A stretch of 64,000 nucleotides of DNA from an uncultured Gemmatimonadales bacterium (GCA_963793305.1 CAWBZV010000002.1:64001-128000); one strand, 5' to 3'. Numbered from the stretch's first letter, positions 39,546 to 62,100 are shown. Notes: generated from the letters alone by a model not told the origin. Numbers and translations are program-made.

Positions 39546-39658
39546 ACCACGCTCGCCTCGCGGCCGCGGCACGCAGTATGCCGCCACGTATGGGGTCCGG
39601 CCCTAAAATGACCAATATTCCCCCTAAGTCCCCCGGGGGATTTTCCGGAGAAATTTGC

Positions 39659-40315
39659 ATGATCGATCGTGTCCGTCTGGTTACGTGCTTGTTCGCCATT
39701 GTCCTGTGCGCGAGCGTCGCGAGCGAAGCGAGCGCGCAAGCGTGGAACTATCCCGAATTCCAAGCCCCTCGCGTCGTCAGCCGAGAATTCAACTTCGCCG
39801 TATTCTCGAGCGGTGACGGCGGCACCGGCCTGCTCGCGCAGTGGCGCGAAGGCATCGCCCCCGATTTCATCCTCGAGCTCGAGGGCGGCTTCACGAGCCC
39901 GCCACATCATCTTGACACCCACGGCCTGATCGGCGGCTCGATCGGTTACCAGTTGGCGCGTGAATCCAAGGACATTCCGCTCGACTTCCTGCTGACGGGA
40001 GGATTCTACGACGCGTTCGGCAGCCCGAACGAGTTCCGGATCCCGTTCGGGATCTCGATCGGCCATCGATTCCCGATCCAGGGGAGCGCCATGGCGATCA
40101 CCCCGTACATCGAACCACGGCTGTCGATCGACAATTCGCCGGGTAACACAAAGCTCGGCGTCGAGTTCGACATCGGTGGCAGCATGGAATTGACGCCGCA
40201 GATATCCGTACGACTGCTCGGCACGTTCGGCGGGTCGAACGCGATGCCAAATGACCCAGGTATCGGCTTCTCCGTGGCGTGGACGCCGCTCGGATTGACG
40301 GGGGCTCGGAAGTAG
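39659..40315 (+). CDS. Secreted small beta-barrel outer membrane protein, unknown function
   Basis: Signal peptide ending ASAQ; alternating hydrophobic strands. Confidence 0.65.
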   Translation: MIDRVRLVTCLFAIVLCASVASEASAQAWNYPEFQAPRVVSREFNFAVFSSGDGGTGLLAQWREGIAPDFILELEGGFTSPPHHLDTHGLIGGSIGYQLARESKDIPLDFLLTGGFYDAFGSPNEFRIPFGISIGHRFPIQGSAMAITPYIEPRLSIDNSPGNTKLGVEFDIGGSMELTPQISVRLLGTFGGSNAMPNDPGIGFSVAWTPLGLTGARK

Positions 40316-43406: not shown

Positions 43407-44534
43407 GTGCGATCAACGCTCGCGGTTGCTCTCTTGTGTGCGAGTCTTGGCGGCGCGGCCCGCGCTCAAGAGACATTCTCGCCTACCATGCAGTTCGGCA
43501 CCGGGTTGATCAACGCGCCGACCGCCTGGATCTCGCCGTCGACGGCGGACTTCTGGATCGACTACTCCGGCCAGCGGATCCCGTCGACCAACCAGCCCCT
43601 GAGCTTCGCGCACGGATGGAACGGGAACGGTGCAATCGAGACCCAGTGGCTCGGCCGCTTCTCGCTGGGCTTCTCGCTCTACAGCAACAATCCGGAATAC
43701 GGGTTCTTCGGATCGCTGCTGGCCCTCAAGGACGGACAGTTCTCGCCACTGCTGCCGGCGATCGCCGTCGGCTTCCGGAACCTCGGGCCCTTCGACCACG
43801 AGGACCGGTTCCTGATCGGGCACGACGTCACGGTCGATACGGTCGGCAACACGCACGGGTTCACGCCGTCGTATTTCGCCCATTTCCATACCAGCCCGAC
43901 GCTCTACATCGTAGCGACGAAGTCGATCAACTTCACGCCGCTGTTCTCCGCGAGCCTCACCCTTGGCGGCGGCGACGGGTTGTTCAGCGACGACGGCGGC
44001 CTGGGGCAGATCTATGACCGGCACGGACAAACGGTCAAAGGCATGTTCTTCGGGACGCAGCTCCAGTTCCACCCGACCAGCGTGGCCAGCATCTCGTTCG
44101 TGGCCGAGAACGACGCGTGGAACTACAATGCCGGGATCCGTGGCGAGTTCCATGGGATCGGCATCGGGATCTATGGCACGGAGCTCGAGGAAGGGAGCAC
44201 GAAGCGGCCGAGCGACTTTCTGATCTACAATTACACCAAAGCCAACTTTGTCGTCTATTATCACGCGAATTTCCGCGACGTTGGCCGGGGCGTATTCCTG
44301 CGCAGTGAGATCACGCAGCTCGAGCACGAACAGACCGAGCTCAAAGCCGAGATGGCGCGGCGCGAGCGGCGCATCCACGATCTCCAAGTCTCCCTCGGCA
44401 AGCTCCAGGGGTCGGCCTTGAGTGACGTGGAACGCCAGCGCCAGGAGCTCGAGGCGCAGCTCAAGGAAGAGCAGGATCAGATTCGTCGGGCCAATGAGCG
44501 GTTGCAGCAACTGCAGGGTGGGAAACCCCAATGA
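43407..44534 (+). CDS. YjbH-like outer membrane beta-barrel with C-terminal coiled coil (paralogue 1)
   Basis: GAGGA RBS then GTG; signal peptide; GTGLINAPTAW; amphipathic strands; about 70-aa heptad tail. Confidence 0.65.
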   Translation: MRSTLAVALLCASLGGAARAQETFSPTMQFGTGLINAPTAWISPSTADFWIDYSGQRIPSTNQPLSFAHGWNGNGAIETQWLGRFSLGFSLYSNNPEYGFFGSLLALKDGQFSPLLPAIAVGFRNLGPFDHEDRFLIGHDVTVDTVGNTHGFTPSYFAHFHTSPTLYIVATKSINFTPLFSASLTLGGGDGLFSDDGGLGQIYDRHGQTVKGMFFGTQLQFHPTSVASISFVAENDAWNYNAGIRGEFHGIGIGIYGTELEEGSTKRPSDFLIYNYTKANFVVYYHANFRDVGRGVFLRSEITQLEHEQTELKAEMARRERRIHDLQVSLGKLQGSALSDVERQRQELEAQLKEEQDQIRRANERLQQLQGGKPQ

Positions 44535-45733
44535 AATTGACGTCAGCACTGGTCGCGGGTCTGGCTTTGACCGCTGCTGTGGCGAGTGGGCAAGAGGAGT
44601 TCGGCCAAACGCGCTTCTGGGGATCGGGATTGATCGACATCCCCACCGCCTGGGTCGAGCCGGTCTCGGGTGACTTCTCGTTCAACTACAGTGGTTCGTC
44701 CTACCAGACCTCGTCCCAATTCCCCCAGTACAACTCGTCGCTGAACTCGAAGCTCAGCCTCAACACGTCGCTGTTCAGCCGCCTGCAACTCGGCGTCTCG
44801 CTGTTCTCGACCAACCCCGAGCAGGCGTTCTATGGCCAGCTCGTGGCGCTCCGGGAAGCCGACACGAAGGGGGGACCGCTCGCATTCCTCCCGTCGCTCG
44901 CGATCGGGGTCCGGAACATCGGGCCATACAGCAAGATCGACCGGTTCGGCCTCGGCTACTCGAACGAGATCAACCCGGCCGGCGGCACCGCTCCGGTGAT
45001 CCGCGCCGACTCCACCCATCAGTCGTTCTCGACGGGCAACACGGTCTACGGAGTCGCGACCAAGAACGTCTCACTCCAGGATCTCATAGCGACGGCGCCG
45101 CCTGTGAACCTCAGCGCCACGGTCGGCTACGGGAATGGCTTATTCAGCAATCACGGAAACCTGCCAACGAAGTACTATGCCGCGGATGCGACCGGTGGCC
45201 TGTTTTATGGTCTCGCCGCGACGTGGCGCCCGTCGACAAACGTCCTGTTTTCCGTCATGGGCGAGAACAACGCCTGGGACTTCAACGCGGGTGCGTCGGT
45301 CGACTGGCGCGGGCTCCGCGCCGGGATCGACGTGATCGACCTCGGCGGCGGCAGTCAAAAGATCAATCCCGCGATCCCGGCCACCGCGCTCTATCATTAC
45401 ACGAAATTCGCCTTCACCCTCGGCTGGCACAGCAACGTCTTTGCGCTCCTCGGCGGGCATCTCCTGGAGGATCGCGCGGCTGCCCTGAAAAAGGAGCGGG
45501 ATGGGCTCCTGGCCGATATCTCCAAGCGGCAAACCCGTATCGCCGAGTTGCAGGGGCTCGTCAAGCAGTACGAAGCTCAGAATCTCCTGGAGCTCGAGCA
45601 GCGGAGAGCCGCGGCTCAGACCCAGTTACAACAGGAAACCGAGGCGCTGCGGCGGCTCGAGGATCGGCTGAAGCGTATCGAATCGCAACAAGGCTCGACC
45701 CCTCCTCCTCCGCAAACGTCGACCCCTCAATGA
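44531..45733 (+). CDS. YjbH-like outer membrane beta-barrel with C-terminal coiled coil (paralogue 2)
   Basis: GSGLIDIPTAW, AIGVRNIGP, ENNAWDFNAG shared with paralogue 1; coiled-coil tail. Confidence 0.65.
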   Translation: MKLTSALVAGLALTAAVASGQEEFGQTRFWGSGLIDIPTAWVEPVSGDFSFNYSGSSYQTSSQFPQYNSSLNSKLSLNTSLFSRLQLGVSLFSTNPEQAFYGQLVALREADTKGGPLAFLPSLAIGVRNIGPYSKIDRFGLGYSNEINPAGGTAPVIRADSTHQSFSTGNTVYGVATKNVSLQDLIATAPPVNLSATVGYGNGLFSNHGNLPTKYYAADATGGLFYGLAATWRPSTNVLFSVMGENNAWDFNAGASVDWRGLRAGIDVIDLGGGSQKINPAIPATALYHYTKFAFTLGWHSNVFALLGGHLLEDRAAALKKERDGLLADISKRQTRIAELQGLVKQYEAQNLLELEQRRAAAQTQLQQETEALRRLEDRLKRIESQQGSTPPPPQTSTPQ

Positions 45734-46431
45734 CACGGGCGATAATTTGGAGCGTCGCGCTGCTGCTCGGCCTGGCCAGTCGCCAGGCCCGGGCGCAGGA
45801 TACGACGAATACCCAAACCTACCCGGAGCGTCGCAAGGCGATCCTCGACGACATCAAGTCATCGCAGCGCAAGCTCGATGACCTTCGGGTCGAGCGGCTG
45901 CAGCTCGAGTCACGGGTCGAAGCCGTGGCGGGCAAAGTCGCCGAGCAGCGCGTCAATGCGCTGCTCATGAGCCGGGAGACGTACGCGCTTCGGCAGCTGG
46001 ACTCGCTGTTGACCGTCTCACAGGATGTCCTGCTCGCCCAGCGCGACCGGTTCCTGACGCTCGGCGACGCCGTCCGCCGGCGGGCGGGTGCCGAGCTGGT
46101 GATCGTGTTCCGAGCGGATTCGGCGTCGACCCTGACCCAGCGCATCGACAGCGCGTCGGTCAGGATCGACGACGGCGCCGGCTCCTCCCGCGTGTACTCG
46201 CTGCTCGCCAACTCGGCGTTGGCGTCGGGCGCCGTGGACGAGCTCTATCGGTCGAACGTGCTCCCGTCTCCCCACACCATTTCGGTGACCGTGGGGCTCA
46301 ACGGCGGAACGCAAACGCAGTCCGTCCGCGTCGACGCCGCCGCTGGCGCCTCGACCTACGTGCAGTTCGCCGTCCGGAATGGACAGTTGGTACAGACGAC
46401 GTGGTCGAACAAAGACGCCTCTTCGCACTAG
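45730..46431 (+). CDS. Secreted coiled-coil plus beta-sandwich protein of Glt-like clusters
   Basis: Signal peptide; coiled coil; IDSASVRIDD...ALASGAVDELYRSNV...HTISV; ATGA overlap. Confidence 0.65.
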   Translation: MTRAIIWSVALLLGLASRQARAQDTTNTQTYPERRKAILDDIKSSQRKLDDLRVERLQLESRVEAVAGKVAEQRVNALLMSRETYALRQLDSLLTVSQDVLLAQRDRFLTLGDAVRRRAGAELVIVFRADSASTLTQRIDSASVRIDDGAGSSRVYSLLANSALASGAVDELYRSNVLPSPHTISVTVGLNGGTQTQSVRVDAAAGASTYVQFAVRNGQLVQTTWSNKDASSH

Positions 46432-48569
46432 GGCTCGCGCTCATCGCGCGAGTCGTCGTTCCAGCGCCGGTCGTCGCGCAGCAACCCGCGACGCCGGCGC
46501 CGGTGCCTGCCGTCCCGAGAGATACCACCGTCATTCCGCCGCTGGACAAAGGCCGCGCGGTCGACGCTGAGATCCGATCGGCACTCTATGCGCTCATGAC
46601 TGGCGACGCGATCGCCGCGCTCAGCCGACTGAGGCCACTGGATCCAGGCACCGAGTCGGCCGAGCGCCACTTCCTGATCGCGGAGTGCTACTACCGCCTG
46701 GGAATGGACGACAGCCTCCGGACAGAGGCGGCGACATTGGCGGCGATGCCGGAAGCCGCGCGCTTCCAGCCGCTTCTGCATGCGCAGCTGCTGCTCGCCG
46801 ATTATCGCGATGGCGACTACGCGCGGGCCGTCGATCAGGCGCGCACGCTCGGACCCGACCAGAGCGGCATCACGTCGCTGCTCGCCGGACTCGCGGCCTA
46901 TCGCCTCGGCCAGGAGCCGGCCGCGAGAAGCGCCTTCGAGGCGGCCCAGGCGACGAGCGGTCCGTACAAGACGTATGCGCAGTACATGTTGACGCTGATG
47001 AGTCTCAAGGCCGACACGGCCCATGGTGTCGCGACGGCTATGCTGGCGCTCGACTCACTCGTCCCCACGGCCCAGAGCCCCTCGTCCGATCAGTTGCACC
47101 TGACGCTCGCGCAACTCGCCTACGAGGGCACCCAGTACGACCGCTCCGCGACCGAGGCCGGCCTTGTGACCGCGACGAGCGGGCTGCGAGCGCCGGCCCT
47201 GCTGACTGGCGCGTGGGCGGCCTATCGCGCCGGCAAGCCGCAGCAGGCCGGCGATCTCTTCGCGACGTACGCGCACGACTATCCGGAGCTGCCCACGCGC
47301 GACGAAGGCCGCCTGATGCACGCCCAAGTCGCTCTCCAGTTGCACCAGGATGACTCGGCCGCGCGCGCCTTCAAGGCGGTCGCCGATTCGGTGTCCGCCG
47401 AGGCCCAGGGTCTTGGCGCCAATGCCTCCGGACTGCGCGGCGGCGCGCGTCTCCTGGTCAATGCGCGCGTCGCCGACGTGCTGCTGCTCGGCGACGTGGC
47501 GGGCGGCAAGGCGGTGAGGTTCCCGGACCTCGCGGTGGGCGGCATCAATGCGTTGCGCATCGCCGTTGGGGATGCCCCGACCCCGACCGTTCCGAGTCCG
47601 ACCCCCGTCTCGGTCGAGACGCTCTCGCAGCGTCTCGACGCCGCCGGCATTGACTCGGCCGGCGCGGCGAAGGGTGGCGTGACGGCCGGAGCACCGCTCC
47701 TCCGGCGCGCCGTGTTCATGCCAACGTCCGATGCCTCACGCGGGGATCTCGCCAAAGGGCTGGCGACGTTGCGCGACGCCGATGTCGGCGTGGCCACGGC
47801 CGATCAGGCCGTGCGATCCGAGAACTCGAACATCCTGCTGCAGGTCGCGAACCTCAAGCGCATGCGCGAGATGATCCAAGGGGCGCAAGACAGCTTGCGC
47901 ACCGGGTTTGGACCGCTCGCCATTGCCGAAGACTCGCTGGCGCGGGTGACCTCGAATGTGGATACGGCCTACTTCACGCTGCATCGGCTGATCGGCGCGA
48001 CGGTCACGGATCTCCGCGACCTGGCGAACGAGAATGCGACAAAGCTCGATAGCGTGCAGCACTCGCTGCAGGCATTGGCTTCGACGGCGGATCTCGCGTA
48101 TCTCCAGCAGGAGCGTGAGACGAACGCCATCTACCGGCGCATCGCCGACGAGGTCGACGCCGGCCTCGACTCCGCGATCGCCCACAATCCCGCGTTCGCC
48201 CTGCGCGACACGGTGCGCCAGCGTGGCGAGCGCACGCGCGCCCTCATCGTGCAGACGCGTGCCGCCGGTGCGGTGGCCGCCGCCGCGGTCGACAGCGCGC
48301 AGGCGCGGGTGGAGCGCGGGCCGTCCGAGACACGCCTCGCACTGCGCGCGGCTCTCGTGGCCGCCCAGGCCCGCCGCGACGCAGCCGCCACGGCGCTCGT
48401 CGTGACCGTCGATCGCGAGCTCACCGCTCGCGGCATCGCGCTCGCCGCGGCCATGCGTCGCGATCTCGAGGCCGCGGAGTTCGGCTCGGCGACCGCCTCG
48501 TTCTTCCGCGCGGTCGCGGCCGATAGCACGGCAAGCCCGGCGGCGGCCCCCTCGGGAAGCGCGCCATGA
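46401..48569 (+). CDS. Secreted TPR plus coiled-coil protein (GltC-like)
   Basis: Signal peptide, Pro-rich linker, TPR-like repeats (FLIAECYYRLG, LLTGAWAAYRAG), helical C-terminal half. Confidence 0.7.
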   Translation: MVEQRRLFALGLALIARVVVPAPVVAQQPATPAPVPAVPRDTTVIPPLDKGRAVDAEIRSALYALMTGDAIAALSRLRPLDPGTESAERHFLIAECYYRLGMDDSLRTEAATLAAMPEAARFQPLLHAQLLLADYRDGDYARAVDQARTLGPDQSGITSLLAGLAAYRLGQEPAARSAFEAAQATSGPYKTYAQYMLTLMSLKADTAHGVATAMLALDSLVPTAQSPSSDQLHLTLAQLAYEGTQYDRSATEAGLVTATSGLRAPALLTGAWAAYRAGKPQQAGDLFATYAHDYPELPTRDEGRLMHAQVALQLHQDDSAARAFKAVADSVSAEAQGLGANASGLRGGARLLVNARVADVLLLGDVAGGKAVRFPDLAVGGINALRIAVGDAPTPTVPSPTPVSVETLSQRLDAAGIDSAGAAKGGVTAGAPLLRRAVFMPTSDASRGDLAKGLATLRDADVGVATADQAVRSENSNILLQVANLKRMREMIQGAQDSLRTGFGPLAIAEDSLARVTSNVDTAYFTLHRLIGATVTDLRDLANENATKLDSVQHSLQALASTADLAYLQQERETNAIYRRIADEVDAGLDSAIAHNPAFALRDTVRQRGERTRALIVQTRAAGAVAAAAVDSAQARVERGPSETRLALRAALVAAQARRDAAATALVVTVDRELTARGIALAAAMRRDLEAAEFGSATASFFRAVAADSTASPAAAPSGSAP

Positions 48570-51500
48570 GACGCCTCGCGCTGGCCCTCGCGCTCCTCGC
48601 CGCTACTCGCATACTGGCGCAGACGCCGACCGCCACTCCCGTCCGACCGGTCGTCGCGAGAACGCGGCCGGCGACGATCGCGGACTCGGCGATCGTGCAG
48701 CTCGAGTCGCTCCTGCAGCGCTATCCGGATAGCCCGCTCAGACCGGGCGCGTTGTACGAGCTCGGCGAGCTGTTGACCCGTCGGGCCGACGAACGATTCG
48801 CGGCGTCCCAGCGCGTCGACACGACGTCCTCCGGCGCATCGCACCCCGACTATACCGACGCGATCGCGCGCTACGAGGAGATCGTTAAGCGTTTTCCAAC
48901 GTTCGATCAGATCGACGGCGCCGCCTACACCCTGGGCACGCTGTACTCGTTCGACCAGCGCTACGCCGACGCCGTCCCGATGTTCGAGCTCGTGGCCTCG
49001 AAGGACCAGTCGCCGCACAAGCCGGAGGCGCTGTTCCGCCTGGGCGATGCCGAGTTCGAAATCGCGGCGAATCAGAAGGGCGACGCGCGTCTGGCATCGT
49101 TCGGCAAAGCCGCCTCGGCGTACGAGCGCGCCTCGGCTGCATCTCCAGCCAATGGCGATGTCTACTTTCTGTCGCTGTACAAGCTCGGCTGGGCGTACTA
49201 CAACACGGCAACGCCGCAGAACCCCGCCGGGTACAATCAAGCCGTCGAGGTCTTCGGCCGTCTGGTCGATGCGTACGACAAGCTGACACCCGAGCGCCAG
49301 CAACGACTCGGCTTGCGGGAAGAGGCGATCGAGTACATGGCCGTGTCGTTCACGCAAGTCGGCGGCGCGGCCGCGGCCGATAAGTTCTTCGCGGCTCGCT
49401 CGGACAGCGCGTCGCTCAAGATCCCGGTCTTGCGGCGAGTCGCGGCACGGCTGCGTGACCAAGGCGACTTCGCGAAGGCGGTCGACGCGTATCAGGAGCT
49501 TTTGGTCGAAGCACCGGACGACTCATCCGCGCTGAGTACGTCGCGCGAAGTCATCGATATCTACCAGAACCGCACGCTCGAGCCGGAGAAGGCCCAGGCC
49601 GCGCGTATCGCGCTGGTGCAGAAATTCTCGCCGGGCTCGTCGTGGACGGCCGCCAATCCCACGCACGCGAAGGATGTCGAGGCCGCGCGCGAGGAAGTGC
49701 TGCGCCAGAGTGCCCAGTACGAGCTCGCCAAGGCGCAGGGCACCCCCACGCAGCTCGCGCAGGCGCCCAAGCGGCGCACCAAGGGGAAGACGGGCGCGAC
49801 ACCGGCGCAGGAGGCGGTCGCCGTCACGCCGGCGGCGCGCGAGCACTACACCGAGGCCGCGCGTCTCTACGCGATCTATATGTCGGACTACGGCCAGTCC
49901 GACAGCGCCCGCGAGGTGGACATTCACTACGCGGACGCGCTCTATGGCTCCGGCGATTTCCGGAAGGCCGGCACCGAGTACACGCGCGCGGCATTCAATT
50001 TCCCCGCGGATACGTTCCAGACGAGCATCAAGGCGGCCAACCAGCAGTCGGCCCAGAACGCGATCGTCGCCTGGGACTCGGTCACGGCTCACGACACGAC
50101 GGACCGTGCGTCGCAGGACTCGCTCTTCGCCGCGGTCGACAACTATGCGACTCGCTACCCACACAGCGACGTCGCGAAGAAGGCGTTGATCGAGAAGGGT
50201 CGTCGCGCGGCGCAAGGCGGACGGTGGGACGTTGAGGCGCAGACCTTCCGGATCTACGCGTTGCAGTATCCGAACGATCCGTACGCCGCGACCGCCGCCA
50301 AGCAAGTCGGCGACGCGCTCTACAAACAGGGCAAATACGCCGACGCCCAGCTGCAATGGGATTCGGCCGCCGCCACGGCGCGGGCCACGGGCCGGCGCAC
50401 GTTCGCCGACTCGATCAACGGCGTCCAGCAAGGCGCGGCATCGTCGTATGCCGACTCGTTGATCAAGGCCGGCGCGTACGACAAGGCCGCGAAAGAGGTG
50501 TACATCGCGCTCGCCGACAAGAATCCGTCGAGCGAGAAAGCGCCGGATGCGCTCCGCAACGCGATCGAGACGTATATGCTGGCCGATAGCGCCGCGCGCG
50601 CGAAGAGTGACCAGAACGGGTCGCAGGCCGCCCGCGTGCAAGCCGCGAGCTTGTCGAATCGCCTGATTACCGAGTACCCGCTCTATCGCTATCGGCTGCA
50701 GTATCAGACGCTGCACGCGGATCTGCTCGAGGAGATCGGCCAGGGCGATCAGTCGGTGACCGCGTTGCGTCAGATCATCGCCGACAATCCGTCCTGGCGC
50801 GGTCGCGCGGACGCGGAGATCAAAGTCGCCGTGCGGCTCGACTCATTGGGGAAGGGCAAGGAAGCCGCCGCGGCGTACCAGCAGTTCGCGGCCGACTATC
50901 GCCAGGATCCTCGCGCGGCGGACGCGCTGTACAACGCGGCGGTGACCTACGTCCAGGCGCGAGACACGCTGGCGGGCGCCGCGGCCTACGGGACCTTTGT
51001 GGATCGATTCCCGAAAGACTCGCGAGCCGCGCAGGCGCGCGTGTATCGGGTGCAACTGTTGAGGGCTGGCGGGGACAATGCGACGGCGGACGCGGATCTC
51101 AACAGACTCTGCAGTCTGCTTAATCCGCCGGCGGAGTTGAAGGGTGATTGCGCCGCGAGGGCAGGGCGCTCCGCGTTCGATGCCGGCCTGGCCGAGTTCT
51201 TGAGGTATCGCAATGTCAAGCTCGTGATCGCGACGAGGGCGCAGCTCACCGCGGCCGGCGTCAAGCGAGCGGCGGCGTTGAAGCAAAAGAATGCTCGGGA
51301 CGGTCACGGGTGATTTCACGAAAGCCATCGAATCGGGTGATCCCCAGTACCTGGCGGCCGGCTCGTACTACGTCGGTTACGCGCAGTGGGAGTACGGCAA
51401 CTTCTTGAAGAACGTGCAACTGCCCAAGTCTTTGAGTGACGCCGAACGCACGGCTGCCGCCGCGGGAGCCGGGCAGCAGGCGCAGGCGTACTACACGCAG

Positions 51501-51635
51501 GCCGAGAAGACGTGGACCGCGCTGGTCGACAAGGCCACGCAGGACGGCATCACGAATGCGTGGATCGACCTCGCACGCGATGGCACAACTGGCAAGGTAC
51601 CCGATCTGCCTCCAACGCCCGGTGGTCTCAAATGA
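48566..51635 (+). CDS. Large periplasmic TPR protein (GltD/AgmU-like; one +1 frameshift near 51290)
   Basis: Many TPRs (ALYELGEL, EALFRLGD, LYKLGWAYY, LREEAIEYMAVSF, DALYNAAV); ORFs 48566..51313 and 51291..51635 join by removing one A. Confidence 0.75.
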
Positions 51636-51976
51636 CGCTGCCGCGCGCGGTGTTCATTTTGTTACTTACGCTCGCGTCTGCTACAATCGCATCGGCGCAG
51701 GTAACGAAAAAAAAGCGCCCACCAGCCGTCGCGGCTGCGCAAACGGTCGAAATTCGCGGACAGGTGCCGACGCCGCAGGTCGTCACGGTGCGGCCGAGAG
51801 CCGTTCCCGATTATTCGCGGGGCGTCTTGGTTCCCGCGTTCTATGACCAGCACTTCTGGCCGTCAATTCTGGCGCCGTATCGCGTGGTCCCGACGTTGCC
51901 GAGCGAGTCGGGTCATCGTCCACCGGAGGCGGCGCCGGACACGGCCGCCGCGTCTCCCCCTCCCTCGAGAGAATAG
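51632..51976 (+). CDS. Small secreted protein, GltF/CglF-like
   Basis: Signal peptide; VEIRGQVPTPQVVTVRPR...FWPSI resembles the GltF IxGxxxxP...R...F pattern; position between TPR gene and motor genes. Confidence 0.55.
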   Translation: MTLPRAVFILLLTLASATIASAQVTKKKRPPAVAAAQTVEIRGQVPTPQVVTVRPRAVPDYSRGVLVPAFYDQHFWPSILAPYRVVPTLPSESGHRPPEAAPDTAAASPPPSRE

Positions 51977-51979
51977 GCA

Positions 51980-52621
51980 ATGGACGCATTTCTGAAGTGG
52001 TTCCGCGATGGCGGCCCGATCATGTACCCGATTCTGATCGTCGCCCTCTCGGGGTTGGCGATCTTTCTCGAGCGGCTGTACGTGATCGTCTTGCGGTCGC
52101 GCATCAACGGCCCGGCGTTCATCGATCGGGTGATGCAGCTCGTGCGCGCGGGCCGGATCGATGAAGCGATTCGCCTCTGCACGCAATCCAAGGCGACGCT
52201 GCCCGACATGGGTTTGCTCATCCTGCGCTCGAAGAGCCATGACGAGGGCGAGCTCCAGAACGTGGCGGACGCGGCGTCCCTGGCCGTGATCCCGCGGCTC
52301 ACGCGGCGCCTGCAGTATCTCCCGATGCTCGCCAACGTCGCGACGCTGATCGGTCTGTTCGGCACGATCTACGGTCTCCGAGGCGCGTTCGCGTCCGTCG
52401 CGCTCGCCTCGGCAGCCGAGCGCTCGGAGAAGCTGGCGGCCGGTATCGCGATCGCGCTCAACGCGACGGGCTTCGGGCTGCTGACGGCCATCCCGCTGAC
52501 CGTGGGCCACTCGTATCTCTCGGCCCAGGCCGAGCAGATTATCGAGCAGGTCGACGAGTTCTCGGTGCGGCTGATCAACGCGCTCGTCGAACGTCCGGAT
52601 GTCCGCATAGCGACTCGCTAA
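51980..52621 (+). CDS. MotA/TolQ/ExbB proton channel (AglR-like)
   Basis: GGPIMYPI, ANVATLIGLFGTIYG, GIAIALNATGFGL. Confidence 0.92.
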   Translation: MDAFLKWFRDGGPIMYPILIVALSGLAIFLERLYVIVLRSRINGPAFIDRVMQLVRAGRIDEAIRLCTQSKATLPDMGLLILRSKSHDEGELQNVADAASLAVIPRLTRRLQYLPMLANVATLIGLFGTIYGLRGAFASVALASAAERSEKLAAGIAIALNATGFGLLTAIPLTVGHSYLSAQAEQIIEQVDEFSVRLINALVERPDVRIATR

Positions 52622-52645
52622 TCGAACCCAAGCGGAGCGACCGCC

Positions 52646-53158
52646 ATGGTCACTCGCTTTCATCGAGCGAAAGTCCGTCGCCGCGAGCTCAGTCAGGGCC
52701 AGCTCGGGCACGGCAGCATCAATCTCGTGCCACTGGTCGACATTCTGACGTCGATCGTGTTCTTCTCGCTGGTCACCTATCAAGGCCTCGTTGCAGTTCT
52801 GACCAGCTATGACCTCAGTTTGCCGCCTGTAGTTATCAATGCCCCGCAGGAGGCCTCGAAGCCGGACAACGCGCAGTTGAATCTGCTCCTCGCGGTGCGC
52901 GTGTCGAACGACGGCCTGCTGGTCGAGCACTCGGAAGAGGGCGGGTTCCGCCGTCAAATCAAGGGACTGGACTCGACCTCACTCGACACGCTGCAGGCGC
53001 TCATGGTCGACATCAAGGCGAAGTATCCGCAGAACAACAATGTGATCGTGATCCCGAACGACAATGTCGCCTACGATGATGTGATCCACGTGCTGGAGCG
53101 ATTGAAGGTGGCCAAGTATCCCAACGTGGCGCTCGGCACGAAAGCGCGACAGACCTGA
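52646..53158 (+). CDS. ExbD/TolR-family protein (AglQ/S-like), copy 1
   Basis: INLVPLVDILTSIVFF with conserved Asp; YDDVIHVL. Confidence 0.88.
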   Translation: MVTRFHRAKVRRRELSQGQLGHGSINLVPLVDILTSIVFFSLVTYQGLVAVLTSYDLSLPPVVINAPQEASKPDNAQLNLLLAVRVSNDGLLVEHSEEGGFRRQIKGLDSTSLDTLQALMVDIKAKYPQNNNVIVIPNDNVAYDDVIHVLERLKVAKYPNVALGTKARQT

Positions 53159-53160
53159 TC

Positions 53161-53703
53161 ATGGCCAAGACGAGTCGATTCCAACAGTCGCGAGAGGCGC
53201 GCCGCGGCGCCCAGTTCTCCAAGTTCAAGCTGGCCGAGCTGAACCTCGTCCCGCTCGTCGACACGCTGGTGTCGATCGTGTTCTTCGCACTGGTGACGGC
53301 GGTCGTCGGTGAGCTCGCGCCGGTCGTGGCCGGCGTCACGCTGCCGGAATCGAGCGTCGGCGGGAATGCGCTGCAGCAACTCACCCTCGGCGTCGGCGCC
53401 CAGGTCACGGTGGCGAATACGCCGGTCATGAGCACGGTCGACGCGGCCCAGGCCCAGTCGAACATGCCGGGCCAGCCGCTCTTGATTCCGCAGCTCTACG
53501 CGGTGCTCAAGGAGAGAGCGGATTCACTTCGCTCCCAGCGCGGCACGCCCGGGACCGATCCCGTCGACCAGCCGCTGGCGATCCAGGGCGACAAGACGAT
53601 GCACTATGATCTCTTGTCGCGGATCATGCAGACGGCCCGGCTGGCTGGATTCAAGAACATCTCGCTGCAGGTCAAGCGCGTCGGGGGCGCCGGCAACACG
53701 TGA
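53161..53703 (+). CDS. ExbD/TolR-family protein (AglQ/S-like), copy 2
   Basis: LNLVPLVDTLVSIVFF; IQGDK..YDLLSRIMQTARLAGF. Confidence 0.88.
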   Translation: MAKTSRFQQSREARRGAQFSKFKLAELNLVPLVDTLVSIVFFALVTAVVGELAPVVAGVTLPESSVGGNALQQLTLGVGAQVTVANTPVMSTVDAAQAQSNMPGQPLLIPQLYAVLKERADSLRSQRGTPGTDPVDQPLAIQGDKTMHYDLLSRIMQTARLAGFKNISLQVKRVGGAGNT

Positions 53704-54707
53704 CGGCGCCTCAAGGGCCTCGGCCCTCGGGAGCGAGCGCTCAGCCGCCCAAGCGGCGCACCGGCCGCGTCCGCGCGCCGGTCGACGAGACGAGCTTCAC
53801 ACGCGAGCTGCGCCACGAGCTGGCGAGCAGCGAAGGCCGCGCGCTCGTTGTCTCGTCGAGCATCTCGGCCGGCATCGGCTTTATCTGGATCCTACTCGTG
53901 ATCTTCGGTCCACGGACCGAGACCGCTCACCTGTTGTCGGCGGACGAGCGGCCGATCAACGTGACATTCGAGTCGCCGCCGCCCGAGGAGCCCAAAGTCG
54001 CGCCCACGCCGGCCGCGCCAACCGTGTCGAAGCCGACGCCGAAACCCGCCGCTGCCGCCGCCGCTCCGAAACCGTCGGGGCCGACATTGGCGGAAAAGCG
54101 CGCGGCCGCCGCGGCCGCCGCGTTCGGCGCACCGGCTGCGTCGAACGGACCCGTGGGCAATGTCTCGAACGTGCTCCGTGGCGTATCGGTCGCGTCCAAC
54201 TCGCCGGCCACTCCGGGTGCGGCGACGGGCGGGAAGCAGGTGCTCGCGTATGGTCAGGGTGGCGCGGGCTCGCGCACGCCGGGCCGCGACGCCGGCGCTG
54301 GCAGCGGTACCGGGTCGATTGGCGCGGTCCAGGGCACCGGCGGGTTCGGCGCGCAGGCCGTGCGCATCTCGGCGCCGAAGGTGATCGACGCGCCGAGCCT
54401 CGGCGGGCCCTCGCGCGACGTTGGCGAGCTTGGCACGCAGGTGCGCGACCACGAGTCGCAGCTCCGGTTCTGCTACGACGAGTTCGGCTTGAAGGTGAAT
54501 CCGGCACTCGCGGGCAGCGTGACGATCGCGCTGACGCTGACCGGTGGTGGCGCCGTGACGGACGCCAAGATCACCGGCCGCACGTGGAGCGGCCCGGGCG
54601 CCGACGCCACCGAAGCGTGCATCCTGCAGCGCGCGCGCGGGTGGCACTTCCCGGCCTCATCGGCGGGCGGCGGCACCTACGAGTTCAGCTTCAACTTTAC
54701 GAAGTGA
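53700..54707 (+). CDS. TonB-like protein with AgmX/PglI C-terminal domain (GltG-like)
   Basis: One TM, Pro/Ala/Gly linker, LRFCYDEFGLKVNPALAGSV...CILQRARGWHFP. Confidence 0.85.
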   Translation: MTAPQGPRPSGASAQPPKRRTGRVRAPVDETSFTRELRHELASSEGRALVVSSSISAGIGFIWILLVIFGPRTETAHLLSADERPINVTFESPPPEEPKVAPTPAAPTVSKPTPKPAAAAAAPKPSGPTLAEKRAAAAAAAFGAPAASNGPVGNVSNVLRGVSVASNSPATPGAATGGKQVLAYGQGGAGSRTPGRDAGAGSGTGSIGAVQGTGGFGAQAVRISAPKVIDAPSLGGPSRDVGELGTQVRDHESQLRFCYDEFGLKVNPALAGSVTIALTLTGGGAVTDAKITGRTWSGPGADATEACILQRARGWHFPASSAGGGTYEFSFNFTK

Positions 54708-55703: not shown

Positions 55704-56426
55704 GTGCCTGCAAAGACTGACGCCGAGACGGCGCTCGCTGATCTCGTTCAGCAGATGGAGCGCGTCTGGGAGCGCGGCCTGTCTGCTGTGCTCCTTTACG
55801 GCTCAGGAGCAGGCGGCGAGCACATTGCTGGCCGGTCCGACTACAACGTGCTCGTTCTAGTCGACTCGGCCCCGCTCGAAAAGCTGCGAGGGGCCGAGGC
55901 GGCGCTTCGTGGCTGGAGGGCGGCGGGGCATTCGCCGCCGCAGGTCATGACGGTCGAAGAGTGGCGGACAGGCGCCGACGCGTTCCCGATGGAGTACGCG
56001 GATATCCTGGCTCGGCATCGTGTGCTAACCGGTGAACCGCCTTTCGCCGGTATCGCGGTCCGCGCGACGGATCTCCGGCTGCAGCTCGAACACCAGGCCA
56101 GGTCGACGCTCCAGCGTCTGCGCCGGCGGCTCCTGGGGACGTCAGCCGAAACGCATCGTGACGTTTTGGCCGATAGCGTGAGAGAGGTGATGATCGTCTT
56201 CCGTGCGAGCGAACGTTTGCATGGGGCGACGCCGCCAACGGAGAACGACGCGTTGGCGAATGCGGTGGCGGGGCGGGTGGGATTCGACCCCGGGCCGTTC
56301 CTGCGCGCCGTGCAGCACGTCCGCTCCGCTCCGAAGCTCTCCGCTCGCGAAGCGACGGATGTGCTCTCCGGCTATCTGGTCGGGCTGGAGCGCCTGGTCA
56401 CTTATCTCGACGCCTACGAAGCATGA
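55704..56426 (+). CDS. Nucleotidyltransferase-domain protein
   Basis: LYGSGAGG...SDYNVLV; DAFPMEY. Confidence 0.82.
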   Translation: MPAKTDAETALADLVQQMERVWERGLSAVLLYGSGAGGEHIAGRSDYNVLVLVDSAPLEKLRGAEAALRGWRAAGHSPPQVMTVEEWRTGADAFPMEYADILARHRVLTGEPPFAGIAVRATDLRLQLEHQARSTLQRLRRRLLGTSAETHRDVLADSVREVMIVFRASERLHGATPPTENDALANAVAGRVGFDPGPFLRAVQHVRSAPKLSAREATDVLSGYLVGLERLVTYLDAYEA

Positions 56427-56929
56427 AAAAGGTTCTGTTTCTCGCCCTGACAGCCGCCCTCGCCTGTCACAAAGACAAGCAGCCGCCCGCGACTGCGTCC
56501 GTACCACCGGTCGACACCACACCGGTTGACCTGTCCAAGGTGCAGACCGCGCTGCCCAAAGCAGCACCCGATACGTTCACGCCGCCTCCAAAGCCGAAGA
56601 GCGACGTCGTCCAGGCGCCGGATTTTCCACCCGCGCCCGAGCCGCTGATGGCGTCCGTCAATCGCGAATCGGCGTTCTCCCGGTTTTGTTTCGAGGAGTA
56701 CGGAGAGAAGTTGGATCCGACGCTCCGTGGCGGGGTGGCGATGCTCGTGACGGTCAGCGCCCAAGGCGTGAGCGATGCGAAAGTCGCGAACTCGCGTTGG
56801 TCGTCGAAGCAGCCCGGCGCCGGCGTCGATCAGTGTCTCAACGAGAAAGCCAAGCTCGCGTGGAAGCTGGAACCTGGTGAAGTCCGCTCGGGCCAATACG
56901 TCGTGCAGATGAGTTTCCGGGGGAGTTAA
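56423..56929 (+). CDS. Lipoprotein with TonB-C/AgmX-like C-terminal domain
   Basis: Lipobox ALAC; Pro linker; RFCFEEYGEKLDPTLRGGV...QCLNEKAKLAW, similar to the C-terminus of 53700..54707. Confidence 0.65.
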   Translation: MKKVLFLALTAALACHKDKQPPATASVPPVDTTPVDLSKVQTALPKAAPDTFTPPPKPKSDVVQAPDFPPAPEPLMASVNRESAFSRFCFEEYGEKLDPTLRGGVAMLVTVSAQGVSDAKVANSRWSSKQPGAGVDQCLNEKAKLAWKLEPGEVRSGQYVVQMSFRGS

Positions 56930-57499: not shown

Positions 57500-59009
57500 C
57501 TTCTCTTTTTCGTCACGCCGATCCTCGCGGCGTGCCACGACGTCACCGGCACCAGAATCTTCCAGCCGCCTCCCGACACGGCGACGGTGCGCGTGTTGGC
57601 CGAGACGTACCAGAGTCTCGAGAACGATCAGATGCAGGAGTGGGAGGGGACGCTCGGGATGCCCGTCGGCCTCTACACCCAGCAGATGGCGGGGATCGCG
57701 GCGCAGCCCGAGGCGTTCGATCTGTATCGATTCCTCGCGGTCGACGCCGATCCGGGGTTCCAGGCGATTCTCGCGTCGGCGATGAGCGCGCGGACCATCC
57801 AGACGCTCGGGCACAAGATCAACGACTCGCTGTGGGTCGGCATCGGCAAAGTCTGGGAGGCCGCGGCGGTCGGCGATGCCGCATTCGATCTGGGGCGCGA
57901 TCCCGTACACGCAGGCGTTTGATCGGGCGCACTACCCCGATCCCGAGTTCGACCCGCAGCCTACCGTCTATCAGATGGTCGATGCGCAACTCGACTCGGC
58001 GATCCGGTACTATCTCGCGGCTCGAAACGCATTGCCGCGCGGACCGGACACGGCGGAGCTCATCTATCGTGGGCAGCCACCGGAGTCGTTGGCCACGATC
58101 TATACGGAAGTCGCGCACACCCTGCGCGCGCGATACGATCTCCATCGCTCGGGCAGCGATCCGTCATTCTACGCGCTGGCGCTCCAGGAAGCGCAGCAGG
58201 GGATCTCCGATCCGCGGCACGACTGGAATTGGTACAACGACGGCACCGAGCCGCAGAACAACGCGACGTACACGCTCGTGACCGGCCATAGCGCCGGACA
58301 GCTCGCGCCCTCGGCCACGCTGATCAATCTCATGCACCAGCGGATGGCCGAAGGGCTCGACGCGAATCAGGATCGACTCGATTTCTACTTCGTGAGCCTG
58401 GTCAATGCGTCGCTTTCGTGCGACTCGACGTGTGTGGGATTCCGGCCGGGCGGCAATGTGGCCGAGCCGGGGGGTGCCGGGACGTCCGATTTCGACCTGC
58501 TGAATTTCGGCGCCGGATTCCGGCAGCCGTATGTCACGTGGACTGAGACGCAGTTGATCGTGGCCGAGGCGGCGCTGGCGACGGGGAATGCGCTGCTCGC
58601 GGAGCGGGCGCTGACAGCGGTGCGAGCGCACGAGGTGTATGGTGCCGACGTGAGTGGAGACCGGCTCGCGTCCGGTTCCGTCGCCTGTGGTGGCCCGTGT
58701 ACGTTCGTCACACAACGGCCGGTCCCGGCGACGCTTCGCAACATTATAGAAGAGAAGTACATTGACTTGTTTCTGAGCGCCGAGGTCTGGTCGGACTTCA
58801 GACGCACGTGTTTGCCGTACATCGCGGCGGCGCCGGCGACCGTGACGGATTCGGTCCCGCGCGCCGGGAGCTTGCCCGAGCGATTCCCGTACGGGGAGAC
58901 GATAGCGGCCGATCCCAACACGCCGATCGTCGCCCCGACCGCCCACAACGCGGATTCTCCGCGGATGTGTCCGTCGTATTCTTTCTTCGGGACTCCGGCA
59001 GCGTACTGA
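57500..59009 (+). CDS. SusD-like lipoprotein (frameshift near 57885; start codon unclear), paralogue of 62515..64000
   Basis: Lipobox LAAC; WGAIPYTQAF, AHTLRARY, ETQLIVAEA, IIEEKYIDLF, EVWSDFRRT, PERFPY. Confidence 0.7.
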
Positions 59010-59043
59010 CTAGACTGTATTCTGTCAGTTTGCTAACCACTTC

Positions 59044-59072
59044 TTGACACAGTCGGCTGCCGCCCGTAACGT
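59044..59072 (+). promoter_or_regulatory. Sigma70 promoter of second susC/susD locus
   Basis: TTGACA (59044-59049), 17-nt spacer, TAACGT (59067-59072). Confidence 0.65.
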
Positions 59073-59190
59073 GGCGCACCGCCAACGACTACGTCCGTAG
59101 TACTACGCAGTTAGTACTAGGGAAATAGTAGTCGCCCACCAGGCGGGGTCATTCGCTCCTCCACTCTTACTGCGAGGTGCCGCGAGACCC

Positions 59191-62100
59191 ATGTCCAGTC
59201 AGCGAGGTAGGTTGTTCAATCCAGGCGTCCTATTCATGGTCGCCGCCGCCAGTGTGCTCTCGTTGCCCACAGAGCTCACTGCGCAGCAACCGGTGACGAT
59301 CACCGGTGATGTGACGAGCGATGCGGGCACACCGCTCCCCGATGCCAGCGTGTTCATCCAAACGATGAACTTGGCGACTCAGACTCGGGGAGACGGCAAG
59401 TACACGATCGTCATTCCCTCGGCACGCGTTGCCGGGCAGACGGTCACGCTGTCCGTTCGTCTCGTCGGCTACACCAGCGCGTCGGCCCAGATCACGCTCA
59501 CCGGTGGCACGGTCACCCAGCCGTTCAAGCTCGTCTTGAATCCCTTCCAGCTGGGCACCGTGGTCGTGACCGGTGCGGGCACGCAGGCCACCGTCGAGCA
59601 GCTCGGTACGACGCGGAGCTACGTCACGCCCGAGGAAATCCAGCGCAGCAACGAGTCAAACCTGGTCACGGCGTTGGCGGCGAAGGCGCCGAGTGTCCAG
59701 GTCACATTGAGCTCGGGTCAGCCCGGCACGTCCACGTACATCCAGTTGCGCGGTCTCACGACGCTGACGGCGTCCGACGGCCAACCGCTGATCGTGGTCG
59801 ATGGGTTGCCGATCGACAACTCGAACGTGATGTTCGCGGGAAACGCGCCGGGCTCGGCCGCCGCCGGGAATGGCGGCGCCGAGACGGTGAACCGCGCGAT
59901 GGATCTCAACCCGGATGACATTGAGAACGTCGAGATCCTCAAGGGTCCGTCGGCCGGCGCCATCTACGGATCGCGGGCCGGTCAGGGCGTCATCCTGATC
60001 ACGACGAAACGCGGTCGCTCGGGACAGACCCACTACTCGGGGAAGAGCTCGAACGTCGTGGGACAATGTCTCGAACCTGCCGGCCAATCAGACCATGTAC
60101 AACCTGGGCCAGGACGGCCAGACGTTCTCTTGCGCCGGCGTCGTCAACTGCGCGCCACCGGGCCGCGGTTCGTCATGGGGCGCCGTGATTCCGGCCGGCA
60201 CGCCGGAATACAACAACTACAACAACATGTTCACGACCGGCCACGTGTACGACGAAGCGATCACGGCGTCGGGCGGGAACGATCGCACCACCTTCTACGT
60301 GTCCGGTGCGTACAATCTCAATCGCGGCATGCTGACCGGGCCGAACGACAGCTATGGCCGCACGGCGCTGCGATTCAACGGCGCACAGCAGGTGAACTCC
60401 GATCTGCGCCTGTCGGCGAACGTCGCGTTCTCGGCGTCGAACGGCGACTACCTGGAGAGCAGCAACAGCACGTCCAGCTTGCTCCTCGGCGCCTGGCGCA
60501 CGCCAGCGACGTTCAACAACGCGGCGTATCTGGCCCCGAACGGCGAGCCCGTGTCGACGCGCTTCGAGAACCCCGCGCCGGGCACGGACGAGATCTCGCG
60601 CGTGTACGACAATCCGTTCTTCGTCGCCAACAACCAGAAGAACACCTCCAACGTGGCGCGCACGCTCGGCAACGTCACCGCGGACTATCAGGCGCTGTCG
60701 TGGCTGCGGTTCAGCGAGAACATCGGCGCCGACTACTCGAACGATGAGCGTCTGACGTCGGAGCCGTGGACCTCCGGCAACAGCGCGGGCGAGAATCCGA
60801 TCAGCTCGAGGCTCGCGACGGGCAATGTCAACCAGGGCTACATCAAGCAGTGGTCGATTGACCAAACGATCACCGCGACGGCGACGCATACGTTCTCCAA
60901 GAGCTTCGACGGGTCACTCACCCTCGGCAACAACGAGAACGTGAAGCAATTCAACACCGAATTGACGACCGGCCTCGTGCTCCCATCGCCGCAGCCGTAC
61001 GTCCTGTCGAATACGGCGCTGCCCCAGTCGCCGGGCGTCTACACGTCGGCGATTCGGCTGGCGTCATTCTTCGGGCAGGCGCAGGCCAGCCTGTTCCACC
61101 AACTGACCCTGACCGGTGCGCTGCGCGACGACGGTGCGTCGACGTTCGGTATCAACCAGCAGTTCAGCTGGTTCCCGAAGGTGAGCGCGGCGTGGCAGGT
61201 GATCCGGCAAGGCGACAACAGCAACAACTGGCTCACGAGCGTGAAACTCCGCACGGCGTACGGCGAGAGCGGCACGCAACCGCGTCCGTACACGCTGTCG
61301 AATTCGTTCGGCGCGGGGCTTTTCGGTGACGGATTCACCACCATCAGCACGGCGAGCGTCAATGGCCAGGGTGGCGTCGTCACGCAGGCCATCGAGCCGA
61401 ACCCGAACCTCGCCACGGAACGCCAGAAGGAGTTCGAGATCGGAACGGACATCGGGTTCCTGAAGAACTTCGGCGATCTCAGCTTCTCGTATTATCGGGA
61501 GAACACGACGGGCGCCATCTTCCCGGTGCCGGTCGCGTCGTTCACCGGCTACAGCGAACAGTATCAGAACGCGGCCAATTTCTGGAACCACGGCTTCGAG
61601 GTCGCGTTGAACCTCCGGCCCATCCAGACGAAGCTGCTCTCGTGGGATGTCGGCGTGAACTGGTCCCGCAACCGTAGCGATGTCACGAGCCTGCCGAAAG
61701 GCGTGCAGTTCGTCGACATGGGTGGCACCGGTGGGCTGGGTGGGATTACCGGCGCGGCGCTGGTGGGCCAGCAGGTCGGCATCTGATTACGGCACCGACG
61801 TTGTGCGCTGCGGCCACAATTCGATACTCAACGGCGTCAACCTCGACCAGACCGCGGGCGCGTGCAAAGGCGCGAAGGCCGGTTCGGTGTACCTCGACGC
61901 CACTGGGCTGCCGCAGGTCGATGCAACGGGCTCATACGTCATCGGCGACCCGAACCGCAATTGGATCGGATCCCTGCACACGGGTTTCCATATCCTCAAG
62001 TTCACGGTCACGGCACTGCTCGACGTACAGAACGGCGGCGACAGCTACAACGGCACCGCCGGCGCCCTGAACTATTTCGGCACGTCGGCGGTGACCCTCT

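Follow-up and report, generated by a model that had tools for sequence, protein, structure and literature searches.

The core of the Agl-Glt machinery was described by Luciano et al. (2011; PMC3169522) as gltC, gltD, gltE, gltG, aglR, aglQ and aglS together with one additional gene. In Table S3 of that paper, gamma cores carry GltG proteins of 321–371 amino acids (aa), and the core of Fibrobacter succinogenes S85 (Fisuc_1892-1897) comprises GltC, GltD, AglR, AglS and a 308-aa GltG, with no GltE listed; the title of Table S2 names Proteobacteria and Fibrobacteres. Such cores have been viewed as basal surface transporters, and the Agl-Glt and Nfs machines of Myxococcus are described as moving polymers after export and not through the membrane (PMC3858216). 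The proton-driven core is ancestral to the gliding machine of Myxococcus, and its job outside Myxococcus and Bdellovibrio has been a question since 2011. Here, we describe a relative of this core in a 64,000-nucleotide (nt) stretch of DNA from an uncultured Gemmatimonadales bacterium (GCA_963793305.1, CAWBZV010000002.1:64001-128000; hereafter the window), in which ten co-directional open reading frames (ORFs; g1–g10) occupy positions 43407–54707 of the plus strand and a lipoprotein gene, g11, follows further downstream. The block is a real, conserved system. In the reading that we favor, to which we assign a probability of about one half, a proton-driven motor would pull, through a periplasmic scaffold of tetratricopeptide repeat (TPR) proteins, on a pair of predicted outer-membrane barrels and would move the barrels together with surface cargo. 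This compact variant of eleven genes gives a lead on the job of the core, with a candidate outer-membrane output end and a clean pattern of presence and absence in one family at one chromosomal site, which provides natural pairs with and without the system.

The locus resembles the cores of Luciano et al. in forming one operon with the order GltC-GltD-small gene-AglR-AglQ-AglS-GltG, in its short GltG (335 aa, within the range of the gamma cores) and in its AglR-clade motor with two different ExbD-type subunits. It differs from them in the absence of GltE, in two dedicated coiled-coil barrels, in an AgmX/PglI-domain lipoprotein and in its phylum ('gemmatimonas' has 0 matches in the text and supplements of PMC3169522 that were searched). 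The Fibrobacter S85 core is likewise GltE-less with a short GltG, a likeness of the Table S3 listing and not of sequences. Two GltE-less metagenome cores (L168 and L174) are the best outside matches to g5 (2e-73) and g7 (1e-58) and are alike in having a barrel-like gene with a charged C-terminal helix, GltC, GltD, the small gene, the motor and GltG; however, they contain one barrel-like gene, no match to g3 and a GltG of ∼450 aa with a long N-terminal part. The gliding machine Agl-Glt and the spore-coat machine Agl-Nfs of Myxococcus xanthus share the motor clade, a GltD/GltC/GltG-type scaffold, an outer-membrane barrel pair and a second TonB-type C-terminal domain, but GltE, GltJ, FHA and CglB were not found here (the search for CglB gave none in the control genomes either), and GltA is described as OmpA-like (PMC3169522), whereas the barrels here are predicted to be 12-stranded with coiled-coil tails. 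A general NCBIfam scan of the window proteins returned no GltA, GltB, GltH, GltK, GltI or AglZ family, although no search was aimed at them. The motor superfamily, the channel Asp and two Thr motifs that align with those of the Escherichia coli motor proteins are common to the block and to E. coli TolQRA and ExbBD-TonB, but the block belongs to a separate clade, the Glu of the GIAEAL motif is replaced by Ile or Val in g7, as it is in gamma-type cores, and neither TolB/Pal nor a receptor is a constant member of the block.

The first-pass annotation of the window, which had presented the block as an Agl-Glt-like machine outside the myxobacteria, overstated its novelty in this respect, since such cores have been known since 2011, while the relation to the core holds. 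Neither the absence of GltE nor the short GltG without FHA is new: the 2011 listing already includes the Fibrobacter core without GltE and gamma cores with short GltG proteins. What is new is the phylum, the two predicted 12-stranded coiled-coil barrels, the lipoprotein and the rarity of flagella among carriers. The searchable literature, which mostly does not cover subscription journals, yielded no account of this cluster, and the accessible part of PMC12505986 contains no link between AglR and Gemmatimonadetes.

Motor and scaffold genes of the block

A Pfam/NCBIfam scan identified MotA/TolQ/ExbB in g7 (6.7e-22), ExbD in g8 and g9 (4.6e-12 and 2.8e-16) and TPR in g5, in agreement with the one TolQ-like and two ExbD-like proteins of the first-pass annotation. 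In a careful tree of 31 rows, g7 and its relatives were placed inside the AglR group (support 100/99), a tree holding g7 with TolQ/ExbB was rejected in the approximately unbiased (AU) test (p-AU 0.0008), and a quick tree of 100 rows gave the same split, with g7 in the AglR group (support 99). The AglR anchors in these trees are metagenome loci, some with a divergent motor pair of the Sorangium type (Table S3), and not M. xanthus AglR. The g7 clade is long-branched and stands apart from TolQ/ExbB of E. coli and of its own genome, and its place within the AglR group is unsettled. The transmembrane Asp of g8 and g9 aligns with that of E. coli ExbD/TolR, and the N-x-x-P-x-x-D motif of these proteins is kept in 38/38 and 34/34 relatives, respectively. 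A PDB sequence search with g7 returned TolQ/ExbB only.

The other genes were compared with families from a metagenome scan with a short AglR-type motif, for which DNA was obtained from 80 loci of 128 stretches; the families were assigned by position and length, and the set is biased by the capturing motif. Mis-called or outlying members (the L158 small gene, L152 X, L152 GltE, L160 GltE and L102) and AglR fragments of <190 aa were left out. Many of these loci are ordered X, GltC, GltD, GltE, small gene, AglR, AglQ, AglS, GltG, where X is the gene upstream of gltC, with sizes that resemble those in Table S3 of Luciano et al. Against the Myxococcus models they scored below the cut-offs: 1e-18 (L152) and 2e-6 (L174) for GltC, 2e-20 (L152) for GltE and 2e-28 (L168) for GltG. 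In all-against-all hhalign comparisons, g3, g4, g5, g7, g8, g9 and g10 each matched best the core family at the same position: g3 with X (96%, E 3.7e-9, 101 columns), g4 with GltC (98%, E 1.3e-13, 290 columns; 83% with GltD and 58% with GltE), g5 with GltD (100%, E 5.5e-69, 860 columns; ∼93% with GltC/GltE over short TPR stretches), g7 with AglR (100%), g8 with AglQ (99%), g9 with AglS (99.7%) and g10 with GltG (98%). Membership of the GltD family was decided from position and size, as none of the scans turned up a curated model for GltD. When the core profiles were run against the source genome, those of X, GltD, AglR, AglQ, AglS and GltG all ranked the window genes first (for GltD, g5 at 1e-67 and the next protein at 2e-9). 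The AgmX/PglI-type C-terminus that had been noted for the TonB-like protein was confirmed in g10 by NF033768 (53.9 bits, cut-off 40); NF033760 gave 44 bits, far below its cut-off of 650.

Because an AglR-clade motor is combined with profile matches at the core positions, the block is, by homology, a relative of the core of Luciano et al., as a variant and not as a seven-gene member. The assignments of GltD, GltG and the motor are firm at the level of homology, and g4 is probably GltC. The kinship proposed in the first-pass annotation is upheld, with the motor lying outside ordinary ExbB/TolQ and the TPR and small proteins matching core families.

Several observations weigh against this kinship. 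The comparison families rest on gene position in motif-caught metagenome loci and not on M. xanthus sequences. In the source genome, the core GltC profile places g4 (6.8e-8) below an unrelated TPR protein (3.8e-11), GltC model NF033756 matches 0/26 g4 proteins, and no genome protein exceeds the cut-offs of the M. xanthus GltC, GltE and CglF models, which have no direct match to cluster genes. Compared directly with the gamma-type small gene, g6 gives 22% in hhalign and 0.6% once trimmed; it has no match to the CglF model, and its link to GltF passes through three intermediate proteins. The failure of the M. xanthus models would be expected of an ordinary ExbBD/TolQR locus that happens to stand beside unrelated TPR genes, and databases label relatives of g7 'ExbB' or 'ExbB/TolQ'; yet the motor tree with its AU test, the position-by-position profile matches and the strict gene order refute this explanation in the main and leave it a negligible probability.

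The small gene g6 stands where the core has its additional gene, before aglR. Its product resembles the small proteins encoded in L168, L174 and L152 (76%, E 2.2e-5; score 28.3, against at most 16.5 over 40 shuffles), these in turn match the gamma-type small gene (95.6%), and the sole NCBIfam match of the L152 small protein is CglF/GltF (E 0.018). We take CglF and GltF to be the same protein. The core small-gene profile found nothing in the source genome, and Atlas matches for g6 are all <0.9 and serve as leads. Through this weak chain of matches g6 is tentatively assigned as GltF, which suggests an adjustment of the parts list in which the additional gene of the core may be a distant GltF.

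GltE is missing from the cluster, as the gap of 317–925 nt between g5 and g7 holds g6 alone in 41 loci, and in the whole genome the best score with GltE model NF033758 is 56.6 (cut-off 225). The core GltE profile matches 39 TPR proteins elsewhere in the genome, the best of them (2e-61) in a chemotaxis/MglA cluster, where it is a possible unlinked stand-in. The lack of an evident GltE-type gene in the cluster and of FHA on the GltG-like protein, and the different outer-membrane module, had all been noted at first pass and are borne out. A second adjustment of the parts list concerns gene X, the coiled-coil/beta-sandwich homologue of g3, which recurs across phyla and precedes gltC in many gamma-type cores (L104, L105, L111, L113, L122, L141, L143, L153, L155, L158 and L160). 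It is not among the seven named core genes in the text of PMC3169522 and may be an overlooked core part.

The coordinates of the genes are collected in Table 1. All ten ORFs of the tightly packed block were confirmed; neighbors share 4-nt overlaps or sit 2–24 nt apart, and the overlap of g3 and g4 is 31 nt if the start of g4 is the GTG at 46401. The extent given at first pass holds for these ten genes and misses the eleventh member, g11, outside it. The GC content of the block equals that of the remaining window. Promoter and terminator scans of the block gave chance level only, and in six RNA runs just 8–12% of words were present.

Table 1. Genes of the Agl-Glt-type block and the associated lipoprotein gene, in window positions
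Gene	Position	Strand	Description
g1	43407..44534	+	Secreted; predicted outer-membrane barrel with C-terminal coiled coil; g2 paralogue
g2	44531..45733	+	Predicted 12-stranded outer-membrane barrel with C-terminal helical hairpin; AlphaFold model
g3	45730..46431	+	Secreted; predicted 88-residue helix and transthyretin-like beta sandwich; homologue of the gene upstream of gltC in gamma-type cores
g4	46401..48569	+	Secreted protein of TPR/helical type in the place of GltC; start codon uncertain
g5	48566..51635	+	GltD-like TPR scaffold, ∼1020 aa in relatives; here two ORFs, 48566-51313 and 51291-51635
g6	51632..51976	+	Small, secreted; in the slot of the core's 'additional gene'; weak, indirect likeness to GltF
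g7	51980..52621	+	TolQ/ExbB-type motor subunit, AglR clade
g8	52646..53158	+	ExbD/TolR-type subunit at the AglQ position; transmembrane Asp32
g9	53161..53703	+	ExbD/TolR-type subunit at the AglS position; transmembrane Asp34
g10	53700..54707	+	GltG-like transducer: one membrane helix, Pro/Ala/Gly-rich linker, AgmX/PglI C-terminal domain, no FHA
g11	56423..56929	+	Lipoprotein with second AgmX/PglI-type C-terminal domain; co-occurs with the cluster

Of the two TPR proteins reported at first pass, the second has TPR in the Pfam scan but its gene, g5, is split here over two frames by an extra single base near 51290. The split is likely an assembly error, because the junction is one open frame in 39/39 relatives that cover this point and one base fewer is present there in near-identical contigs that come from two runs of a single study (the source sample is possibly included, so these are not independent). 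The intact ORF of a 98% identical relative was used for the g5 comparisons.

Some motor-like genes fall outside or at the margin of this group. Matches to g7 near 1e-31 in four genomes of the phylum, together with Planctomycete matches, were rejected as relatives, as they lie outside the AglR clade and have no Glt-type neighbors other than generic TPR genes; the Planctomycete ExbB-like genes (L075-L081) follow TPR proteins of ∼1065 aa. The Vibrio alginolyticus plasmid NZ_CP013488.1 (L101, 1621-12496) carries a mobile, divergent, core-like block with a long-branched AglR-clade motor, two ExbD-like proteins, a TonB-like protein, an outer-membrane barrel and Ig-like proteins. A viral-collection contig of 407,634 bases (L102, 9391-10575) contains an AglR-type motif of the myxobacterial kind and is possibly host DNA.

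The predicted outer-membrane module and the lipoprotein

The AlphaFold model of g2 (mean predicted local distance difference test score, pLDDT, 78) consists of a barrel (residues ∼48–302), an N-terminal segment ahead of it and a helical hairpin (residues 310–386); the 12 strands were counted manually from the predicted secondary structure. The barrel/coiled-coil nature claimed at first pass is backed for g2 by this model and for g1 by likeness, the two being paralogues with 33% identity; a conserved N-terminal segment lies ahead of the first barrel strand. The nearest folds to g2 are KdgM (Z 17.8, root mean square deviation (rmsd) 2.1, 159 residues aligned), the amyloid exporter FapF (Z 16.9, rmsd 2.9, 198 aligned), COG4313 (Z 15.2) and NalP, at 7–11% identity (FapF 9%), which is a match at the fold level; Foldseek TM-scores were ≤0.32, and a PDB sequence search with g1 and g2 gave coiled-coil noise and no barrel. 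The barrel family is small, with 194 representatives at E≤0.001, and of ten clusters inspected, two are labeled with an organism, in both cases Longimicrobiales. Among 22 distant barrel relatives scanned, three end in a peptidoglycan-binding OmpA domain, as would suit an anchor whose tail reaches into the periplasm. Longer, fused barrel forms were not seen among 8000 candidates (weak evidence). The fold search with g3 gave at best Z 8.3, merely a common sandwich. Two further candidate relationships were rejected: the barrel-like genes of L168/L174 have no sequence link to g1/g2 (hhalign 0.3%), and the 88.5% hhalign match of the barrels to GltG spans 32 columns and is likely a coiled-coil match.

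The barrels are always paired: both are present in 17/20 carriers and in 0/20 non-carriers of the family. In 7/8 barrel-less loci (six of the seven are close kin) and in 0/23 others, the g3 helix has a shorter N-terminal part. The lipoprotein gene g11 lies 1.7 kb downstream of the block, with other genes between, and its AgmX/PglI-type domain match has an E of 3.4e-4. It has a strong match in 20/20 carriers, is absent from 19/20 non-carriers and is weak (2.6e-9) in one, and it is lost along with the cluster despite the intervening genes; a lipobox-like motif is found in 26/27 g11 proteins. By this co-occurrence and its sequence features, g11 belongs to the system. A third AgmX/PglI-type C-terminal domain is encoded elsewhere in the genome (G000:C5:663102-663707).

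In the published AlphaFold model of the Myxococcus machine, GltG wraps GltD, GltF bridges GltG and GltC, GltC lies beneath the barrels and the C-terminal domain of GltJ sits on GltD (PMC11761067). Candidates for all positions of this model are present in the block, apart from GltE and the cytoplasmic platform. Transferred from it, five g7, one g8 and one g9 would form the motor, g10 would cross the peptidoglycan and wrap g5, and g6 would link the C-terminal domain of g10 to g4; by homology and the tree, g7–g9 are AglR/Q/S-type subunits with both channel aspartates and g10 is a short GltG. The barrels g1 and g2 may replace GltA/B/H, with their C-terminal coiled coils hanging into the periplasm and pairing with the long g3 helix, while the g3 beta sandwich would dock on g4, so that force would pass from g7–g9 through g10, g5, g6, g4 and g3 to g1/g2. 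The membrane-anchored g11 could supply the second TonB-type domain, which in Myxococcus is that of GltJ, as a second hold on g5. By analogy with Agl-Nfs, the cargo would be a polymer or a protein of the cell surface that the system spreads or keeps there, and a cytoplasmic steering platform of the kind that directed gliding needs would be missing.

Four observations count against this mechanism. Both barrels are missing in 3/20 carriers, one of them a single-contig genome, so the rest of the system can persist without them; the barrel-less locus L069 retains the full g3 helix; the barrel fold of g2 is also that of gated transporters (FapF, COG4313); and in the neighbors compared across loci no cargo gene travels with the cluster, SusC/D-like blocks also filling the empty site in non-carriers. 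The third of these leads to dedicated TonB-like transport, in which the motor would open the barrels by pulling on the N-terminal segment or the coiled coils and thereby import or export a specific substrate. The best fold matches of g2 are indeed 12-stranded channels, the N-terminal segment is conserved, SusC-like receptors are often found downstream, and the Atlas cluster at rank 3, a lead only, has YjbH in 21% of its members. However, a common barrel fold proves no function, autotransporter barrels reach similar Z values, and YjbH (PF06082) has no Pfam match in the two barrels of the window and is absent from the 25 families listed, out of 41, for 36 barrel sequences. The SusC/D blocks occur at the site also without the cluster, the genome possesses a separate TonB system (a TonB-ExbB-ExbD-ExbD locus, read from translated genes), and the Myxococcus machines act, as noted above, on polymers already exported. 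We consider such gated transport unlikely.

Occurrence in the Gemmatimonadaceae and relation to flagella

The source genome is a Gemmatimonadaceae metagenome-assembled genome (MAG) that is 92% complete, and the closest loci belong to Gemmatimonadaceae/Gemmatimonadales MAGs (44 of 52 confirmed loci among the matches listed); the named carriers among these matches are 44/44 MAGs, which is a practical limit. A strong g7 match was found in 11/30 relatives, every one in the window's own family. In a survey of the phylum, 20/301 genomes had a g7 match at E≤1e-30, of which 16 were strong (the source genome and 15/69 family genomes), and the other four were the different ExbB-like genes near 1e-31 described above. 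These phylum and family counts include the unpublished genome G012, on which the conclusions do not depend. A profile search with g7 gave close relatives only (71–97% identical, best 120 of 2123), and a search of plasmids with g5 gave no match.

Among 44 loci examined, 26 span g3–g10; as the eight genes are complete and identically ordered in 25/26 of these, the block is not a chance arrangement. The cluster was not found in 54/69 sampled family genomes, in which the flanking genes are kept. Six non-carrier loci span the site: in four, dsbA adjoins TPM-nucleotidyltransferase-LemA, and in two a SusC/D-like block is found there. Therefore, the cluster is acquired or lost whole, at a single site. 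The site adjoins waaA-like, DsbA-like and LemA/TPM envelope genes, and the neighbors downstream of the cluster differ between loci.

These envelope neighbors, the OmpA domains of distant barrels and the scores of the TPR proteins on CpoB/BamD models would suit envelope upkeep of the Tol-Pal kind, in which the system would tether or remodel the outer membrane without moving cargo. We regard this as improbable, given that a complete Tol-Pal locus is present elsewhere in the genome (read from translated genes), the family genomes without the cluster retain its flanking genes, and the CpoB/BamD scores are generic TPR matches.

The occurrence of the cluster shows an inverse trend with flagella, which yields a specific prediction for this little-known soil lineage, namely surface movement or surface transport. 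FlhA is found in 2/21 carriers vs 11/20 non-carriers (Fisher p 0.0025 by genome) and, by genera, in 2/15 vs 9/16 (p 0.023), with the reservation for both comparisons that kin are not independent; it is found in 1/18 barrel-bearing carriers and also in a member of the window's genus that lacks the barrels. These counts would agree with a stripped-down gliding engine that stands in for flagella: with a surface adhesin borne by the barrels, the motor would carry the cell across soil surfaces. Flagella-less soil Gemmatimonadaceae would then glide with a minimal Agl-Glt-type engine, with the two 12-stranded barrels, linked by their coiled coils, in the place of GltA/B/H and the lipoprotein in that of the periplasmic end of GltJ. 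The two-barrel module and the second TonB-type domain do parallel GltA/B and GltJ, and the genome encodes MglA-like GTPases that adjoin MglB-like genes. On the other hand, GltJ does not exceed its cut-off in the genome (23 vs 450 bits, at 92% completeness), a search of the genome for CglB gave no match (nor did it in the control genomes), g10 has no FHA, MglA is present in 40/40 genomes irrespective of the cluster, and FlhA is also missing in 9/20 non-carriers. Luciano et al. (PMC3169522) consider it unlikely that the core suffices for motility on its own, and no report of gliding in this group was found in the literature searched. Gliding thus remains a rather doubtful, tentative reading; if true, the ancient core would have been turned into a motility machine a second time, independently, and with neither GltE nor the known cytoplasmic platform.

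Neighboring genes and further observations

Three other genes were considered as parts of the system and rejected, as they are not tied to the cluster. LemA is present in 38/40 family genomes, and MglA in all of them, with or without the cluster. A small barrel-like gene in the window (39578-40315) is present in 17/20 carriers but also in 12/20 non-carriers, i.e. in 29/40 family genomes; its product is secreted, has alternating beta-strand patterns and no Pfam/NCBIfam match, and the gene stands after ATP synthase genes. Translations show, at G000:C14:80453-97737, a chemotaxis-like cluster (CheW, CheY, CheA, CheR, CheB-like) with two roadblock-like genes, an MglA-like GTPase and TPR proteins, and, at G000:C2:655475-656653, a second MglB-MglA pair.

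Downstream of the block, the SusD-like and SusC-like genes of the window (57532-60747) look broken into several ORFs, and the SusC-like ORF at 59191 stops after 518 aa vs ∼1100 aa in L033 and L052, which suggests further assembly frameshifts. In the comparison set, outer-membrane protein barrels, a TlpA-like gene and DUF3570 stand ahead of the cores in L113 (9-2662) and L153 (16611-19907). The gamma-type cores of L105 (530-7147) and L158 (2217-7178) are followed by giant DUF11/SdrD-B repeat proteins, a possible adhesin cargo, and L160, L178 and L111 likewise contain long ORFs at that post-core position.

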